64,000 bases of DNA from an uncultured Solirubrobacteraceae bacterium (GCA_963775385.1 CAVZIR010000003.1:3218934-3282933), one strand, 5' to 3'; counted from the stretch's first letter, positions 1,376-12,124 are shown. The notes: generated by a model not told the origin, from the sequence alone. Translations and numbers: made by a program.

Positions 1376-2197
1376 ATGGTCAAGCGGCGCCTGGACACAC
1401 TGCTGGCCGAACGCGGCCTGTTCCCGTCCAGGACCAGGGCGGCGGCTTCGGTGATGGCCGGCGAGGTTCGCGTCGGCCGCGGCGGCCGCCGCGCCGAGAA
1501 GCCAGGGGAGATGGTCGACGCCGAGGAGGTGCTCGAGGTCTCGGAGCGTCCCGCCTTCGTCTCGCGGGGCGGCATCAAGCTCGCCAACGCGCTCGACGCG
1601 ACGGCGATCGAGATCGAGGGTCGGCGCGCGCTTGACGCGGGCGCCTCGACGGGAGGCTTCACCGACTGCCTGCTGCAGCGCGGCGCGCGTGAGGTGATCG
1701 CCGTCGACGTCGGCTACGGCGTGCTCGACTACGCCCTGCGCAACGATCACCGCGTTCAGGTGCTCGAGCGCACCAACGCGCGCGCCCTGAAGCCAGAGGC
1801 GCTGCCGGCGCCGCGCAGCGGGCCCGACGAGCTGCCATCGCTGGCGGTGATCGACGTCTCGTTCATCTCGCTCGAGAAGGTGCTCGGGCCCGTGATCTCC
1901 TGTCTCTCGCCGAGCCACGACGTGCTCGCGCTCGTCAAGCCGCAGTTCGAGGTCGGCCGCGAACGTGTGGGGAAGGGGGGAGTCGTCCGCGACCCCGACG
2001 CCCGCCGTGACGCTCTGGTGGCCGTCGGCGCAGCCGCGCTCGCCCTGGGCGAGGCGGTGCTCGGGTATCGCTCCTCCGGCCTGCCCGGGCCGAAGGGCAA
2101 CCGCGAGACGTTCATCTGGCTCGCCGAGAGCGGCCGCGAGAGCGGAACCCGGGATGCCGCTGAGCTGGATGCCCTCGCGCGGGAGGTCGAGCCATGA
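1376..2197 (+). CDS. tlyA: TlyA rRNA 2'-O-methyltransferase
   Basis: S4-like RLDTLL, FVSRGGIKL, DAGASTGGFTD, DVSFISL, LVKPQFE. Confidence 0.95.
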   Translation: MVKRRLDTLLAERGLFPSRTRAAASVMAGEVRVGRGGRRAEKPGEMVDAEEVLEVSERPAFVSRGGIKLANALDATAIEIEGRRALDAGASTGGFTDCLLQRGAREVIAVDVGYGVLDYALRNDHRVQVLERTNARALKPEALPAPRSGPDELPSLAVIDVSFISLEKVLGPVISCLSPSHDVLALVKPQFEVGRERVGKGGVVRDPDARRDALVAVGAAALALGEAVLGYRSSGLPGPKGNRETFIWLAESGRESGTRDAAELDALAREVEP

Positions 2198-3042
2198 GGC
2201 AGATCACCGTCCTCACCCATCGGGACCCCGAGGACATCGCGACGGCCCTTTCGGAGCTGCTCTCGCAGGCAGCCGATGCGGGCATCGCGCTGCGCTTCGA
2301 CCCCGAAGAGACCGCCAAGCTCCGCCTGCAGCCGGCCGAGGGGCTGGTGCTCGACGCGCCGATCGAGCGCGACGTCGAGCTGTGCGTGGCGCTCGGCGGC
2401 GACGGCACGATCCTGCGCGCGCTCCAGCACTACGCCGGGACCGGCGTGCCCGTGTTCGCCATCAACTACGGCGAGGTCGGATTCCTGGCGACCGTGGAGC
2501 CCGACGACCTGCACGGAGCGGTGGGCCGCGCGCTGCGCGGGGAGTTCGAGCTGCTGCACCTGCCCGCGATCACGGTGGAGCTTCCCGATGGCGGGCCCCT
2601 GCACGCCATGAACGACCTTGCGATCACACGCAAAGTCGGCGATCGCGTCGCCGAGCTGGCCTATTCGCTGGACGGCGAGGAGGCGGGGAGCGTGCGCTGC
2701 GACGGGCTCGTCGTCGCGACCCCGGCCGGCTCCACGGGCTACAACCTCGCCAACGGCGGACCGGTCATGGCCTGGGGGGTGGAAGGCCTCGTCGTCTCGT
2801 TCATCGCGCCGCATTCGATGACCGCGCGGGCGCTCGTGGTCGCGCCGGGGGACCGCATCAGCATCCGCACCGGGACGCGCCAGCCGCTCGACGTCGCCGT
2901 CGACGGGCGCCCGGCCGGCGCGGTGGCGCCCGGGGCGATCATCCACGCCCGGTTCGTCAAAGACCTCGGCACGCTGGCGCAGCTGCCGGGCACCTCGTTC
3001 TACAGGCGCCTGCGCGAGAAGTTCGGCCGGCTGGCGAGCTGA
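2194..3042 (+). CDS. nadK: NAD kinase
   Basis: GGDGT, ND, DGLVVATPAGSTGYNL motifs; ATGA overlap with tlyA. Confidence 0.95.
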   Translation: MRQITVLTHRDPEDIATALSELLSQAADAGIALRFDPEETAKLRLQPAEGLVLDAPIERDVELCVALGGDGTILRALQHYAGTGVPVFAINYGEVGFLATVEPDDLHGAVGRALRGEFELLHLPAITVELPDGGPLHAMNDLAITRKVGDRVAELAYSLDGEEAGSVRCDGLVVATPAGSTGYNLANGGPVMAWGVEGLVVSFIAPHSMTARALVVAPGDRISIRTGTRQPLDVAVDGRPAGAVAPGAIIHARFVKDLGTLAQLPGTSFYRRLREKFGRLAS

Positions 3043-3048
3043 GGGCGC

Positions 3049-3300
3049 TCAGGCGACGCGTGCGTCGCCCGTGTTCGCGTGCACGTCCTCGGCGGTGCGC
3101 GGGCCTTCGGTCATCGAGGTGATGAAGTTGTCGAGCTGGGCGCGCGAGAAGCGGCGCTGGCCGCCGGGGGTGCGATAGCACGCGATGTGGCCGGCGTCGG
3201 TCCAGCGGCGGATCGTCGCGAGCGACACGCCGAGGTACAGCGCAGCCTGGGAGCTCGTGAAGACGAGCCTGCGGTCGTTCGGTGTGGTGGTCGTGGGCAT
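3049..3300 (-). CDS. BldC-like/excisionase-type HTH DNA-binding protein
   Basis: FTSSQAALYLGVSLATIRRWTDAG..CYRTPGGQRRF, closely resembling the BldC/HTH_17 signature. Confidence 0.85.
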   Translation of the reverse strand: MPTTTTPNDRRLVFTSSQAALYLGVSLATIRRWTDAGHIACYRTPGGQRRFSRAQLDNFITSMTEGPRTAEDVHANTGDARVA

Positions 3301-3584
3301 TCGGGCCTCGATCGTGTCGTCGGGGGCGGCGGTATGCCTCCCGGGTCGCCTCTGTTTCGTCACATCGCGCCGCGAACTTGAGCGCCGCGCAGGTTTGTGG
3401 ACGTTTTCGGCGGCCCGGGACGGGAAGTGTCGCGTTGGCGAGAGAGGGCCGCCCGCATTCGGCGCCCGCGGCCCGTCTCCTTCCCGGGCGGCGCCCGCGA
3501 GGCGCGGCGCCGCCGAGCCGGCGACGGCGCGATCTCAGTGCCGGAGCCAAAGGCGCCCGTCCCGGCGGGCGTTGCGGGAAATGG

Positions 3585-3610
3585 TGTGCATCTGCAACCA
3601 ATCCTGCACA
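3585..3610. promoter_or_regulatory. Inverted repeat TGTGCA-N14-TGCACA, candidate operator
   Basis: Arms 3585-3590 and 3605-3610, ending 13 bp upstream of the putative -35 box. Confidence 0.45.
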
Positions 3611-3623
3611 AAGGTCGGAAAGC

Positions 3624-3653
3624 TGGACATTTCGCCTATCCCTGCGCTACTCT
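3624..3653 (+). promoter_or_regulatory. Sigma70-type promoter of the micropeptide unit
   Basis: -35 TGGACA (3624-3629), 18-bp spacer, -10 TACTCT (3648-3653). Confidence 0.55.
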
Positions 3654-3748
3654 CCCAGAACCTACTCATCTGTAGGGGCTGTCGCTAGGGACGGAGACAG
3701 CCGGAATCCCCGGCTTGCGTACGGGGCCGGAGAAATTAGGAGGAAGAC

Positions 3749-3781
3749 GTGGAAAACTACTCCAGGAACTACTCCAGGTAG
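3749..3781 (+). CDS. Micropeptide MENYSRNYSR (10 aa)
   Basis: AGGAGG at 3738-3743, GTG GAA AAC TAC TCC AGG AAC TAC TCC AGG TAG; own promoter and terminator. Confidence 0.6.
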   Translation: MENYSRNYSR

Positions 3782-3785
3782 CTTT

Positions 3786-3812
3786 CAAAAAGGCCGGAGC
3801 ATGCGGCCTTTC
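3786..3812. terminator. Probable bidirectional intrinsic terminator
   Basis: AAAGGCCG-gagcatg-CGGCCTTT hairpin between the convergent peptide and HD-GYP genes. Confidence 0.65.
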
Positions 3813-3884
3813 GAGGACGTCCGACGCACGGTGAGGAGACTCGCCTGCCGGGCGTCCTCGCGTGTTAACCAGCTGGTCTCCGGG

Positions 3885-5267
3885 TCAGGAGCGTTCGGCG
3901 GCGACCATCTTGCGAACGCGCGCGGCCAGGTCCAGCTCCGTCGCGTGGTCGCCCGCGGGCGCCTCCAGGAGCGCCGGGCCCTCACGCTCGATCATCGCGA
4001 CGAACCTCTCGACGAGCTCGGCGTCGAGCTGCCGGCCGGCGATGTTCCGCAGCTCGGCCAGCGCGTCCTCCACGGACATCCGCGGGCCGTTGGTTTCGCG
4101 CGAGGTCATCGTGTCGAAGGTCGAGCAGATCGCGATGATGCGCGAGGCGAGCGGGATCTCGGAGGCGATCAGCCCCACCGGGTAGCCGCCGCCGTCGACG
4201 CGCTCGTGGTGGTAGAGGATCGCGTCGGCGACCGGCCCGTAGCCGTCGAGCTTGCCGACCAGCGTGGCACCGTCCTGAGGGTGGCGGCGGATCACCTCCC
4301 AGTCGGCGTCCGAGAGCTGCTCGGGGTGCAGGATGCGGTCTGACCAGGTGAACTTGCCGATGTCGTGCAGCAGCGCGGCGGTCTGCACGACCTCGCGCTC
4401 CTCTTCGTCGACATCGAGCTCGATCGCCAGCGCGCGGGCGTAGCGCGCCACGGCGGTCGCGTGACGGCTCGTCTCGGCGTCGCGCAGCGCGAGCGCGTCC
4501 ATCAGCATCGAGAGCACCCCGAGCTGCATGTTCGCAAGGTGGATGCTGCGCGCCTCGAGCTTTTCCGCGCGCTCCTCCGAGCGCAGCAGGGCGCCGATCA
4601 GGTAGTGGAAGATGCCCAGCACCAGCACACCGCAGAGGAGCACGAGCGTGCCGAGGTTGGTGTAGGCGACCGCCAGCAGGGCCGCGAGCACCGCGGAGGC
4701 CAGGTGGCCCGGGATCAGGGGCACGAAGGCGTCGCGGAACTGGCGGCGCAGCGAGCTGCCGTCTTCGATGCGCACATCGATCGCGATCACGGCGAAGTTG
4801 ACGAGGATCGTGATCAGCGAGACCGCGAAGACCAGCAGCCCGAACGTCGCCCCGACGACGGCCGCGTGGTTGTGCGGGTCGCTGACAGGTCCGACGACCA
4901 TCCTCATGATCAGCCCGCCCACCAGGCCGCAGGCGCCGAGGGCGGTCAGGTTGGCGAGCCACTGCGACGCGGGCAGCCGCCGCAGGGCGGATTTGGCGAT
5001 CGCGGCCGTCAGCCCGAAGACGACGGCAGGCGCCGGGCCGAGCAGGCACATCGCGAGCACCATCGCGCTGTGCGCGGGGGTCAGCAGCCCGTCGCGGACG
5101 ACCGAGCTCATGCGGTCGCCGGCCAGGTAGATGCCCGCGAGGATCGCGACCAGCAGGAACGGGCGCCACTGATCGGGAGACGAGAGGGCGACCGCGAGCA
5201 GCGATGCGCCGAGGAGCGCGGACTCGACGATCCACCACGAAGTTCGGATGACGACGGCGGATTTCAT
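3885..5267 (-). CDS. Polytopic membrane HD-GYP domain protein
   Basis: ~7 N-terminal TM segments; LLHDIGK, RRHPQDG, HHERVDGGGYP motifs. Confidence 0.9.
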   Translation of the reverse strand: MKSAVVIRTSWWIVESALLGASLLAVALSSPDQWRPFLLVAILAGIYLAGDRMSSVVRDGLLTPAHSAMVLAMCLLGPAPAVVFGLTAAIAKSALRRLPASQWLANLTALGACGLVGGLIMRMVVGPVSDPHNHAAVVGATFGLLVFAVSLITILVNFAVIAIDVRIEDGSSLRRQFRDAFVPLIPGHLASAVLAALLAVAYTNLGTLVLLCGVLVLGIFHYLIGALLRSEERAEKLEARSIHLANMQLGVLSMLMDALALRDAETSRHATAVARYARALAIELDVDEEEREVVQTAALLHDIGKFTWSDRILHPEQLSDADWEVIRRHPQDGATLVGKLDGYGPVADAILYHHERVDGGGYPVGLIASEIPLASRIIAICSTFDTMTSRETNGPRMSVEDALAELRNIAGRQLDAELVERFVAMIEREGPALLEAPAGDHATELDLAARVRKMVAAERS

Positions 5268-5370
5268 CCCTGTCGTCCTTAACGACCGTCGAGGAGTGGT
5301 ACTTAAGGGGCAACTTGGTGCTATAGCGCCAAGCGGGGCGGGGAAACCGGTCAGGAGGAGATCGGGCAGC

Positions 5371-6609
5371 TCAGGTGAGGGTCTTCTCGGCGGCGAGCGG
5401 CTCCGTCGCGGCGCCTCCGAAGCGCACGCGGGCGAACACTGCTGCGGTCAGCGCGGCGCCCCCGCCGACCACAGCGAAGGCGAACCGCGGCGAGCCGATG
5501 ACGACGAGCACGCCGCCGAGCGCGAGCCCGATCGCAGGGGTGACCGCGCTGATCGATTCGAGCAGCCCCATCACCCGGCCCTGCAGCGACGGCGGCGTGA
5601 GGCGCTGAACGCCGCTGATCACCGGGGCGTACTGCACGCCGTTGCCGATCCCGCCGACGACGGCCGCGAACGCGGCGAGGGCGAGCGTCGGGGCGATCGC
5701 AAAGCCGATGTAGCCGCACCCGATCGCGAGCGTGCCACCGACCAGCAGCACCGTCAGGCTGCGGGTGCCGGCGCGCGCGAAGATGATGCTGCCGAGCACC
5801 ACGCCGACGCCCCACGCGGTCACGAGCAGCCCGTAGCCGCCGTCCCCCGCGACGAGCGTGCGCTTGACGTAGACGACCTCGATCGGCACCGCCGACTCGA
5901 AGAAGATCAGCCCGACGCCCTGGGCCACCAGCAGGGTCAGCAGCGCCCGCTCGCCGCGCACGTAGCGCCAGGCGGCGCGCACGCGCGCCCGCACCGATTC
6001 GCCGCCCGCTTCCTCGACGTGAGGGTGCAGGTCGAGCAGCAGCGTCCCCGAGATCGCGAAGGAGACCACGTCGACGAAGAGGGCCGCGGCGGCGCCCGCC
6101 GAAGCCACGAGGAGGCCCGCCAGGATCGGGCCGAGCACGAACGTCAGCGAGAAGACGACGTTCAGCGCGGCGTTGGCGTGCTGTTCGGCCGCGTGGGGAT
6201 CGTCGGGGTCGGCGATCTCGCGGTTGGCGGCGGCCGCCAGCTCCGTGCGCAGCAGGGCGTTGGCCGCGAGCGCGGCCGTGCCGTCCACGGCCACGAGCAG
6301 GAGGATCGCGGGCAGCCAGAAGTGGGAGAGCAGGACGGCGACCGCACCGATCGCGACGGCCTCGATATACAGCAGGCCGCTGAGCTCGTGGCGCCCTTTC
6401 GAGGCCTCGACGCGGGCGATCACCGCCGGCACGATGAAGGCCGGCAGCACCTGGGCGGCGATCAGGACCGCCGCGACGTCGAGCGCGCTGTGGGTGTGGT
6501 CATAGACCGCGAGCGCCAGCGCGACCGTGCCGAACCATGTCCCGAGGCGGTTGATGCCGTACGCCACCACGATGCGGCGCAGGCGCGGGTTTGCCAGGAC
6601 GGCTCTCAC
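5371..6609 (-). CDS. MFS transporter (DHA3/MefA-like)
   Basis: 412 aa, about 12 TM, QRLTPPSLQGRVMG motif. Confidence 0.85.
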   Translation of the reverse strand: MRAVLANPRLRRIVVAYGINRLGTWFGTVALALAVYDHTHSALDVAAVLIAAQVLPAFIVPAVIARVEASKGRHELSGLLYIEAVAIGAVAVLLSHFWLPAILLLVAVDGTAALAANALLRTELAAAANREIADPDDPHAAEQHANAALNVVFSLTFVLGPILAGLLVASAGAAAALFVDVVSFAISGTLLLDLHPHVEEAGGESVRARVRAAWRYVRGERALLTLLVAQGVGLIFFESAVPIEVVYVKRTLVAGDGGYGLLVTAWGVGVVLGSIIFARAGTRSLTVLLVGGTLAIGCGYIGFAIAPTLALAAFAAVVGGIGNGVQYAPVISGVQRLTPPSLQGRVMGLLESISAVTPAIGLALGGVLVVIGSPRFAFAVVGGGAALTAAVFARVRFGGAATEPLAAEKTLT

Positions 6610-10421: not shown

Positions 10422-12124
10422 GTGCTGCGAGAGCTGACAGTCGAGAACCTCCTGCTGATCGAGCGCGCGCGCCTGCGCGCCGGCCCTGGGCTGAACGTGA
10501 TCACGGGCGAGACGGGGGCGGGGAAGACCGTGCTCGCCCACGCGCTCGACCTCCTGCTCGGCGGCAGGGCGCGCGCCGGGATCGTCCGCCCCGGCGCCGC
10601 AAGAGGCCTATGTCGAGGGCATCTTCGACCTCCCGGACGAGCTGCGCTCGCGGCTGCCTGCGGAGCTGGCCGAGCGGGTCGACGGCGGCGATGCCGAGAT
10701 CGTGCTGGCGCGCCGGCTGGGCGCCGACGGGCGCACCCGCGCCTACGTCAACGGCCGCGCGGCGAACGTCGCCGACCTGCGCGACGCGGGCGGCCTGCTG
10801 CTGTCGTTCTACGGCCAGCACGAGCACCGCAAGCTGATGCTCGCCGCCGCGCAGCTCCAGATCCTCGACGCGCTGTGCGGGCCCGCCCACGAGCGGCAGG
10901 CTGGCCTCCTGCGCGCAGACGTACGCCCGGGCGCGCGAGCTGGACGAGCGCCTGGCAGAGCTGCGCGAGCTTGCCGCGCACCGCGAGCGCGAGCTGGGGC
11001 TGCTGGAGTTCGAGCTCGGCGAGATCGAGGAGCTCGCCCCGGACGCCGAGGAGCACGAGCGGCTGCTGGCGGCGCGCGAGCGGCTGCGCCACGCCGACGC
11101 CCTGCAGGGGGCGGCCGCGAGCCGCCGCGCAGGCGCTGAGCGGCGAGGACGGCGAGACGCGCGGCGCGGCCGAGCTGCTGGCGGGTGGCGTCGGCCTCGC
11201 TCGACGGGGTCGACCGGCGCCGATCCGGCGCTCGACCGCCTCGCCGAGCGGCTCTGCGGGCGGCCGCGATCGAGACCCAGGAGCTGGCGGGGGAGCTGCG
11301 CGAGTACGGCGCCGGCAGCGGCGAGGATCTCGACGTACCGGGCGTCGAGCCGACGCTCGAGTCCGTCGAAGCGCGGCTCGAGGCCCTCGACCGCGTGCTG
11401 CGAAAGCACGGCGGCAGCGTCGACGCCGTGCTCGAGTTCGCCGCGACGGCGCGCGCACGCCACGAGGAGCTGGCCGGCGCCGAGGTCGCGATCGAGAGCG
11501 CCGAGCGCGAGCTCGCGCAGGCGCGCGCGGATCTGGACGGCCACGCCGCCGCGCTGCGCGCCGCGCGGCGGCAAAGCCGCGCCCCGCTTCGCCAAGGCGG
11601 TCGTCGGGCAGCTGCGCTCGCTGGCGATGGAGGACGCGAACTTCGCCGTCGAGCTGGGCGAGGCGGAGCCGGGGCCGCGCGGCGCAGACGCCGTCGAGTT
11701 CATGATCGCCCCCAACCCCGGCGTCCCTCCGGGACCGCTGCGCGAGATCGCCTCGGGCGGAGAGCTCTCGCGGGTGATGCTCGCGATCATGAGCGCGGCA
11801 AGCGCCGCGGCGCCCCAGGCGACGCTCGTCTTCGACGAGGTGGATGCCGGCATCGGCGGGCGCACGGCGAACGCAGTCGGCGCGCGGCTGCGTGAGCTGG
11901 GGGAGCGCGGGCAGGTGCTCTGCATCACCCATCTGCCTCAGATCGCCTCGCTCGGAGCGCGGCATTTCTCGATCGTCAAGGACACCGGCGCCGATCCCAC
12001 GCGGGCGTCCGTGGTCGAGCTCGACGAGCCCCAGGTCGTCTCCGAGCTCGTGCGGATGCTCGGCGCGGATGGCGACGACAGCGCCGCGCACCGTCACGCG
12101 CGAGATCTGCGCAAAGCCGCCTGA
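10422..12124 (+). CDS. recN: DNA repair protein RecN (multiple frameshifts)
   Basis: ITGETGAGKT, FYGQHEH, ASGGELSRVML, FDEVDAGIGG, ITHLPQIA across frames. Confidence 0.93.

Follow-up and report, generated by a model that had tools for sequence, protein, structure and literature searches.

A micropeptide gene conserved beside a MASE9-like/HD-GYP sensor gene in Solirubrobacteraceae

In the Rap-Phr and wider RRNPP systems, a short allele-specific peptide is encoded beside its receptor, leaves the cell by the Sec route as a propeptide bearing a signal sequence, and is read in the cytoplasm by a soluble tetratricopeptide repeat (TPR) receptor. In the ComQXP and Agr pherotypes, close relatives swap peptide and sensor as a pair, and the two diversify together. 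Here we describe, from an uncultured Solirubrobacteraceae bacterium, a micro-gene for the peptide MENYSRNYSR that lies convergent to a gene for a membrane HD-GYP protein with a MASE9-like sensor domain, in a stretch of 64,000 nucleotides (GCA_963775385.1, CAVZIR010000003.1:3218934-3282933; hereafter the window, from whose first letter all positions are counted). The micro-gene belongs to none of the peptide systems with which we compared it. It would work most like Rap-Phr, sharing with it an allele-specific peptide beside the receptor, a predicted reading from inside, repeated cores and, in relatives, long forms with a leader. It differs in its putative receptor, a membrane protein of predicted S-component fold with a phosphodiesterase-type output rather than a soluble TPR protein, and in its peptide: MENYSRNYSR has ten codons and no leader, a signal-peptide-like leader is seen, by inspection, only in long-form relatives, and the candidate exit is a major facilitator superfamily (MFS) transporter rather than Sec. 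Unlike ComQXP and Agr, the locus holds neither a histidine kinase nor a dedicated maturation enzyme, and sensing is predicted to take place inside the cell.

On the receptor side, MASE9-HD-GYP proteins (PF20972; Galperin and Chou, bioRxiv 10.1101/2021.11.05.467447) such as Thermotoga TM1467 and Streptomyces venezuelae HdgA have an eight-helix domain with an intramembrane hairpin and a conserved Asn. MASE9 is an orphan sensor domain, and the main text of that preprint never says peptide and names no fold; HdgA and HdgB are membrane-bound (PMC6205966). The window protein has the same architecture with loss of the RxY[K/R] motif, and what we propose here is a cognate peptide gene, the fold of an energy-coupling factor (ECF) S-component and a pocket turned inward. 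The S-components RibU, FolT, PanT, ThiT, BioY and CbiM match its model at Z 12.0-14.4, with root-mean-square deviations of 2.9-4.4 over 152-187 residues; the window protein differs from them by an extra helix at each end, its predicted inversion, the fused enzyme and an identity of 10-16%. No ECF module lies in the locus itself or recurs in the flanks of the receptor loci (a genome-wide search for one was not made). For gene size, the nearest parallel is biarylitide, whose 18-bp bytA genes lie within ~500 bp, rarely 1,400 bp, of their cytochrome P450 gene (PMC13417212). These are among the smallest genes, like the alleles described here, but the partner of bytA is a P450 and the partner here is a sensor; MENYSRNYSR does not fit the five-residue M-x-aromatic-x-aromatic form, which a minority of alleles do. 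We found no description of the present peptide-sensor system in the open-licence PMC and bioRxiv literature.

The micro-gene and its conservation in the genus

Comparison among relatives makes it almost certain that the unit is a conserved coding micro-gene, conserved as a gene rather than as a sequence. In the window, its open reading frame (ORF; 3749-3781, + strand) begins with GTG at 3749 and reads M E, an exact 12-bp duplication of AAC TAC TCC AGG, and TAG. The Shine–Dalgarno (SD) sequence AGGAGG (3738-3743) ends 5 nt before the start codon, and the frame is closed by a TAG four codons upstream, which leaves no room for a longer product. Upstream on the same strand are a promoter-like site of the housekeeping type (3624-3653; -35 TGGACA at 3624-3629, 18 nt, -10 TACTCT at 3648-3653) and a 5' leader (3659-3748) that carries AACCTACTCA (3659-3668), GGACGGAGAC (3689-3698), hairpins and the SD. 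Direct reading thus bears out the promoter boxes, SD, GTG start and ten-residue repeat ORF of the initial annotation. A plain consensus scan picked up neither a promoter for the micro-gene nor a canonical terminator here, and Rfam (at the gathering score) and ARAGORN gave no match at the micro-gene, the only Rfam matches in the window being two tRNAs. Folded as a whole, 3655-3870 is more stable than its shuffles (z -3.93). It contains the leader hairpins already proposed at 3661-3676 and 3677-3702, and it moves a third from 3708-3726 to 3710-3730. After the stop codon come two terminator-like hairpins (3789-3860, + strand) common to the micro-gene and the convergent HD-GYP gene: a smaller one spanning 3789-3811 and a larger one spanning 3812-3860, because of which the unit extends to ~3865, past its earlier limit of 3812.

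An HD-GYP orthologue is present in 148 of the 151 genus genomes searched, a tally that counts the unpublished G065 and G174. We examined 135 genus loci and left out two at contig ends (L165 and L169), giving 133. In four of these (L080, L142, L191, L206) the second-ranked ORF candidate was taken, by position; L122, whose 14-residue ORF is sister to MDSYAR and probably reflects a sequencing frameshift, was kept in the 133 and out of the distance tests, and L194 and L072 were left out of the tree. The scan of HD-GYP flanks that the initial annotation had called for was productive: an SD of at least five matches followed by an ORF of 4-14 residues occurs on the window strand in 120/133 intergenic regions; the opposite strand gives 16 such cases and dinucleotide shuffles give 41.4. 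When an aromatic-then-basic motif, defined after the data had been seen, is also required, the counts are 108, 3 and 9.8, respectively; a looser score finds a candidate ORF in all 133 loci. Constraint at the amino acid level, likewise anticipated there, is seen in disjoint pairs of loci picked by HD-GYP distance alone. At a distance of up to 0.10 (19 pairs), 0/228 non-synonymous and 3/48 synonymous sites differ; the counts become 9/318 and 6/69 at up to 0.15 (28 pairs), and 28/432 and 13/93 at up to 0.20 (36 pairs, with three more showing a length change). The micro-ORF is more identical than both of its flanks in those pairs, numbers that are small and agree in direction.

By this comparison the peptide is hypervariable between species and held to an aromatic-then-basic core. 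There are 90 different peptides over the 133 loci, 75 of the loci having five residues and 28 seven, and 60% of their residues are Lys, Gly, Trp, Arg, His or Tyr. Start codons (ATG 100, GTG 31, TTG 2) and stop codons (TAG 60, TAA 53, TGA 20) interchange freely; many alleles are genes of 18 bp, and six have only 15 bp. MENYSRNYSR is one allele of this leaderless family of 4-14 residues and recurs in L080, L082 and L022 (85% HD-GYP identity), the last with one synonymous change and a leader only 71% identical; uncultured Solirubrobacteraceae are the source of the records whose HD-GYP protein is 85-98% identical. The view that the tandem repeat and its NYSR core define the system did not hold, as NYSR is one of 90 alleles and the repeat is derived, its sisters in the tree (MEQYGR, MEQYSR) having a single unit. 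Copy number does vary, as had been expected: core duplications occur in 13/133 loci and 8 peptides (units NYSR, GWYR, WPTR, WPSR, WPIR, KSHIR, FPIK), and a FastTree tree spreads them over three branches or more (branch supports were not part of this count); whole-ORF multiples occur elsewhere. The duplications always comprise whole codons ending in Arg or Lys, and some units differ synonymously. Whole units are found as four MGFRKG ORFs in L057 and three MHWKH ORFs in L267, with two peptide ORFs each in L258, L321, L078 and L214. Separately, three genomes (G167, G082, G140) have two receptor loci each, with differing peptides in G167 (MGHHF and MHWQK) and G082 (MGYSR and MGWKG); a single cell may use two dialects, unless the bins are mixed.

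The expression signals are kept along with the ORF. A promoter-like match lies 85-166 nt (median 126) 5' of the start codon in 128/133 loci, with TGGACA in 86; the leader motif CCTAC[TG]CA is present in 108/128 and GGA[TC]GGA[GA]A in 52/128. The 100 nt after the stop codon fold with z < -2 relative to mononucleotide shuffles in 113/133 loci. RNAalifold gave no consensus fold for a 48-row leader alignment in which some rows are anchored on the wrong motif, and accessibility of the SD (0.48) is hardly higher than that of the rest of the leader (0.39). In a soil metatranscriptome (share 0.08), a contig from a close strain covers 3704-4084 together with 51 leader-like letters and has no listed difference in the ORF; we do not count it as evidence, as it is strandless, reaches into the convergent gene and may be DNA.

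Linkage to the putative receptor and the predicted fold of the sensor

We consider it very probable that the peptide is the cognate partner of the MASE9-like/HD-GYP sensor. This fits the proposal of a dedicated small-peptide gene, rather than a leader, tied to the convergent membrane protein, which our analysis upholds. Across the order, related ORFs (MGYRRG, MGFRKG, MGYRN, MGYRVG, MGFKM and others) adjoin the HD-GYP gene in three arrangements, downstream and convergent, upstream on the same strand, or downstream on the same strand, with 16 clear and 2 doubtful cases among 27 order-level loci; family-wide, ~54/68 further loci have a short or long peptide ORF (judged by eye, some doubtful). Peptide units detached from the receptor and far from it are found in L245, L248, L249 and L251, all 3' of one same gene, which we take to be a cyclodeaminase gene, and doubled in three of them. 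The pattern search behind this, in nine genomes with no adjacent ORF, gave five plausible results, one spurious and three blank; the pattern reversed, as a control, matched 7 times in 10 genomes, and only the four units seen in context were counted.

Covariation points the same way. Over 123 genus loci, peptide distance correlates with that of the catalytic domain (rho 0.66) and the sensor (0.48), and scarcely with that of the NAD kinase (0.12). A small helix–turn–helix (HTH) protein encoded nearby shows no such correlation (rho 0.06). There are genome pairs whose NAD kinases are 0.7% apart, yet whose sensors are 37% or 63% apart, with other peptides. Peptide and receptor covary while NAD kinase, HTH and MFS hardly do, so that by this comparison the two move as one cassette, independently of the housekeeping gene beside them. 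Where catalytic domains are close (42 disjoint pairs), the sensor difference is 0.092 under the same peptide core (20 pairs) and 0.313 under another core (22 pairs); at a matched catalytic distance of 0.03-0.10 it is 0.088 (9 pairs) versus 0.323 (18 pairs). The sensor's lid at residues 53-64 diverges by 0.01 under the same core and by 0.27 under a different one; in the outer loops, divergence reaches 0.18-0.20 with the core unchanged.

The receptor gene (3885-5267, - strand) encodes a MASE9-like sensor (residues 1-228, eight helices) fused to an HD-GYP domain (Pfam HD_5), and its product is the putative peptide receptor. Its N-terminal domain is MASE9-like and a divergent member: the window protein has no Pfam MASE9 (PF20972) match over the cut-off, likewise none in G000, and at E <= 0.05 the model matches 4/65 Solirubrobacterales members and 10/10 phylum outgroups (alignment A2). 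Atlas MASE9 clusters score 0.93-0.94 for the domain, and a full-length profile comparison with the best Pfam-MASE9 locus gives a probability of 99.2 over 236 columns. The family's features are all seen, namely full-length homology, eight membrane segments, a short hairpin and the conserved Asn; N106, G77 and A81 are nearly invariant. In the AlphaFold model (predicted local distance difference test 92), the membrane domain has eight helices and a beta-hairpin at 55-62 (strands 55-57 and 60-62), and it shows the six-helix S-component fold with a loop-1 lid. ECF S-components fill the first 14 rows of the VIA comparison over model residues ~30-209, with Z 9.1-14.4 and 13 rows reaching at least 10; after them come MreD, BtuM and then Z < 7; Foldseek also ranks S-components first, all with E > 0.001. 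Loops 1 and 3 gate the S-component site (PMC7329351). In the model these correspond to residues 53-64 (the beta-hairpin lid, codons at 5076-5111, - strand, on the predicted cytoplasmic side) and 96-100. Counting helices back from the cytoplasmic HD-GYP domain, together with charge bias, places loops 1, 3 and 5 inside, where they average 6.7 Lys/Arg compared with 1.6 on the opposite loops, and helices 5 and 6 carry the conserved Asn106 and Asn157 in their inner halves. The model thus predicts an inverted ECF S-component whose pocket opens to the cytoplasm, and binding of the peptide from the inside is, in our estimate, probable.

Transporter, long forms, output and neighbouring genes

The system likely includes a third gene beyond the pair of peptide and HD-GYP protein proposed in the initial annotation. 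In the window this is an MFS gene (5371-6609, - strand), a candidate peptide exporter whose nearest models are the 2A0121, EntS and Tap exporters, below cut-offs. It adjoins the receptor gene in 68/82 loci (67/81 without the unpublished G207), upstream or downstream and on either strand. Among 121 genomes of the family, all 59 with an MFS orthologue (E < 1e-45) have the sensor, and none of the 38 sensor-less genomes has the orthologue, counts in which kin are not independent. The orthologue was not found in 4/4 long-form genomes of a sister genus or in 20/20 long-form genomes of the phylum, and it is present in 6/6 genomes of a short-form genus. This co-occurrence suggests that the MFS protein is likely part of the system, though not obligatory, and that it likely exports the leaderless peptide.

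The long forms belong to more distant relatives. Among 30 phylum-wide MASE9 loci, 20 have an ORF of 20-33 residues that, by inspection, opens with basic residues, continues with a hydrophobic stretch and a site of small residues, and closes on a short tail of aromatic and basic residues; against Pfam and NCBIfam these peptides gave no family match (best E 0.09). In the sister genus, 4/4 genomes have the long form, ending in ATG[GA] plus GFRTN, AFRIK, GWRTT or GFRGN. Short ORFs elsewhere (MGFRKG, MGFKSN, MGYRN) resemble these tails, and sister genera have ORFs of six or seven residues at the same site (MGFRMPR, MSYRTGR, MHWRNC), with more of both kinds interleaved in the family. By this comparison the micro-ORF amounts to Met plus the long-form tail and corresponds to the mature part alone; the long form would be cleaved at the tail. 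As outgroups carry the long form, loss of the leader is the likelier direction. Near one MASE9 gene (L106:3333, +) there is also a basic 24-residue ORF, MSKRARKRR..., which to our eye resembles the small ribosomal protein bL37.

As for output, the HD-GYP domain retains its metal ligands and GYP motif (H269, H301-D302, K305, H329, H353-H354-E355, G361-Y362-P363, D385), and the Glu of the third metal site (position 260) is mostly missing. The receptor gene is preceded by a sigma-28/WhiG-type promoter-like site (5280-5306, - strand; TTAAG, 15 nt, GTCGTTA). Using the consensus taken from PMC8325347, such a site is found in 98/120 genus receptor loci (shuffles 0.2) and 15/45 more distant ones (shuffles 0.1), compared with 0/89 before the NAD kinase gene; this genome has a FliA/WhiG gene over the cut-off. 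In Rubrobacter, WhiG-type promoters drive pilus genes and enzymes of cyclic diguanylate (c-di-GMP) metabolism, and RsiG occurs in Thermoleophilia (PMC8325347). The WhiG-type site thus precedes c-di-GMP enzymes there and the receptor gene here; the portion of that paper on which we draw describes no peptide input.

On the other side of the peptide promoter lies a divergent gene for a small MerR/BldC-like HTH protein (3049-3300, - strand, likely start 3300), with HTH_17 over its cut-off and 39.4 bits to the BldC model NF033787, short of the cut-off of 77. The gene is syntenic in most genus loci, a sigma-28-like site (3381-3355) precedes its likely start, and its other neighbour is the NAD kinase gene (2194-3042, + strand). 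In a distant receptor clade (L221-L231), a longer MerR-like regulator divergent from the peptide gene replaces it. The HTH protein may bind an operator-like TGCA-N8-TGCA repeat (3593-3608, + strand) upstream of the -35 box, the form TGCA-N7/8-TGCA being kept in 113/128 promoters. The longer palindrome first annotated, TGTGCA (3585-3590) and TGCACA (3605-3610) spaced by 14 nt, is present in the window and kept in only 2/128 promoters; we regard it as a chance occurrence and reject it as an operator in favour of the shorter repeat. In the region between the HTH gene and the peptide promoter, TTTGT[GC]GAC (3394-3402, + strand) is kept in 108/135 intergenic regions; the exact TTTGTGGAC has only 5 occurrences in this genome and is a candidate operator. 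Farther off, a gene that we take to be RecN-like (10422-12124, + strand) is broken across several frames, probably by long-read assembly errors; the genome is 72% complete.

Proposed mechanism, alternatives and significance

The reading that we favour, at somewhat better than even chances for the chain as a whole, is that a leaderless allele-specific peptide, an inward pocket and an MFS drain together make a signal of kin density or confinement. The sensor's lid loop 1, loop 3 and Asn106/Asn157 would meet the peptide in the cytoplasm, where a leaderless peptide is made. Binding would be relayed through helix 8 and a coiled coil to the HD-GYP domain and alter cyclic dinucleotide turnover in either direction. 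The MFS protein would drain the peptide, so that crowding by cells of the same allele, or enclosure in a pore, would mean less net loss and a higher inner level. With the receptor gene under sigma-28/WhiG, which c-di-GMP inhibits via RsiG in this class, a feedback loop on motility or pili could result. The NYSR duplication would yield two cores per translation if the product were cut after Arg. With a pocket that is predicted to open inward, the synthetic-peptide additions first suggested would probe uptake plus binding.

A number of observations weigh against this chain or parts of it. No peptide gene was found nearby in 9/27 order-level receptor loci (one of them the unpublished G207) or seen in ~14/68 family-level ones, and a few peptides, such as MPKQK and MPLKG, have no aromatic residue. 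In partial correlations over all pairs, peptide distance follows the catalytic domain (0.53) rather than the sensor (0.11), and linkage in one exchanged cassette accounts for such correlations with no need for binding. Under different cores every sensor segment diverges (0.16-0.45), the lid being unusual only by its invariance under the same core. A Z of 13-14 for helical bundles is near the caution level of the tool, and S-components can topple. The MFS protein does not track the peptide (rho 0.21 in 32 loci, where the NAD kinase gives 0.20), and 24 of the 83 sensor-bearing family genomes have no MFS orthologue; in near-complete genomes of this kind only short peptides were seen (MFWRTK, MIWRNK, MFWRGK, MYLSGR, MYVRGK), and one long-form locus (G412) has a distant MFS gene alongside. 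The RxY[K/R] motif, which confers guanine specificity for c-di-GMP (bioRxiv 10.1101/2021.11.05.467447), takes the form R-x-Y-[RK] in 8 of the 10 outgroups shown from the phylum; most family members have D/E-S/T-Y-R instead, and the window protein has E-T-N-G. Because the motif is lost there, c-di-GMP as substrate is not secure, and this sequence difference may mean another substrate or activity. In the subclade around the window allele (L023-L027), the Y-R of the motif (HD-GYP codons 391-394, window ~4086-4097, - strand) is lost as well, and the enzyme may be altered or degenerate.

The most serious competitor, to which we give about one chance in five, is a cell-autonomous switch. Here the peptide would bind inward and carry no message between cells, its level would report translation, the state of CsrA or proton-driven efflux, and the MFS protein would be a sink. 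The inward pocket, the missing leader and the short-form lineages with no MFS gene all suit such a switch, as does the second GGA motif of the leader (3689-3698), ~45 nt 5' of the SD, often in a small hairpin loop and present in 52/128 loci. A layout of two GGA sites is typical of CsrA-repressed mRNAs, and csrA is present in 5/5 genomes tested, twice in G000, where one copy is in two pieces. What the switch leaves unexplained is diversity: a signal confined to the cell would gain little by diversifying, signal-peptide-like leaders are present on the long forms, and 90 alleles in one genus, with exchange of peptide and receptor between near-identical backgrounds, are what kin discrimination predicts. 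A classical pheromone acting from outside, which is exported and binds either the outer face of the sensor or a toppled S-component, would be at home with the secreted look of the long forms and with S-components that bind outside and topple (PMC7329351). We hold it to be unlikely, as helix count and charge bias set loops 1, 3 and 5 inside, and under the same peptide the outer loops diverge by 0.18-0.20 while the lid diverges by 0.01.

Two further explanations take the peptide out of signaling altogether. The product could be the RNA, titrating CsrA or acting as antisense, or the unit could be a leader or attenuator of the HD-GYP gene with the peptide incidental; conserved leader motifs and hairpins, the convergent terminator overlap and the same-strand upstream ORF of some lineages can be read in this way. 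Constraint at the amino acid level and duplications in codon units speak for a translated product instead, the leader alignment gave no consensus fold, the receptor gene has its own sigma-28-type site, and three gene orders plus detached units in four genomes (two copies each in three) indicate action in trans; we regard an RNA or attenuator as very improbable. Hardly credible, in our judgement, is a minimal precursor of a peptide that is made on the ribosome and modified after translation, like biarylitide bytA, with an enzyme that modifies it and the MFS protein exporting it as a metabolite. The genes are of equal size, and some alleles (MRYHH, MRWNH, MGYSH) take the form M-x-[YW]-x-H. However, a second residue able to cross-link, two positions further on, is missing from most alleles, among them MENYSRNYSR; the flanks show no recurrent modifying enzyme, and of 13 P450 matches in the genome the nearest is ~170 kb off; with no P450 within the window, we rejected the biarylitide reading.

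If the favoured account of an inward-read peptide is right, it describes a peptide signal that has neither leader nor modifying enzyme, and neither a TPR nor a kinase receptor; an ECF S-component fold would serve as an inward receptor, and a kin signal would be joined to the sigma-28/c-di-GMP switch. In that case the long, leader-bearing form across Actinomycetota could supply candidates for peptide signals that lack known genes and targets. One example of such a signal is the oligopeptide taken up by BldK of Streptomyces. Genes of 5-11 codons escape gene callers, and the hosts are abundant, mostly uncultured soil bacteria. An orphan sensor family gains a candidate ligand that is cheap to synthesise, with 90 matched peptide-receptor alleles as a natural panel. 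More generally, at a little under even chances, MASE9 domains may be vitamin-transporter folds turned inward as peptide receptors that set cyclic dinucleotide levels, Solirubrobacterales having pared the signal gene to 15-21 bp for a message of three to six residues, which an MFS protein would export, and maintaining dozens of private dialects through joint swaps of peptide and receptor.

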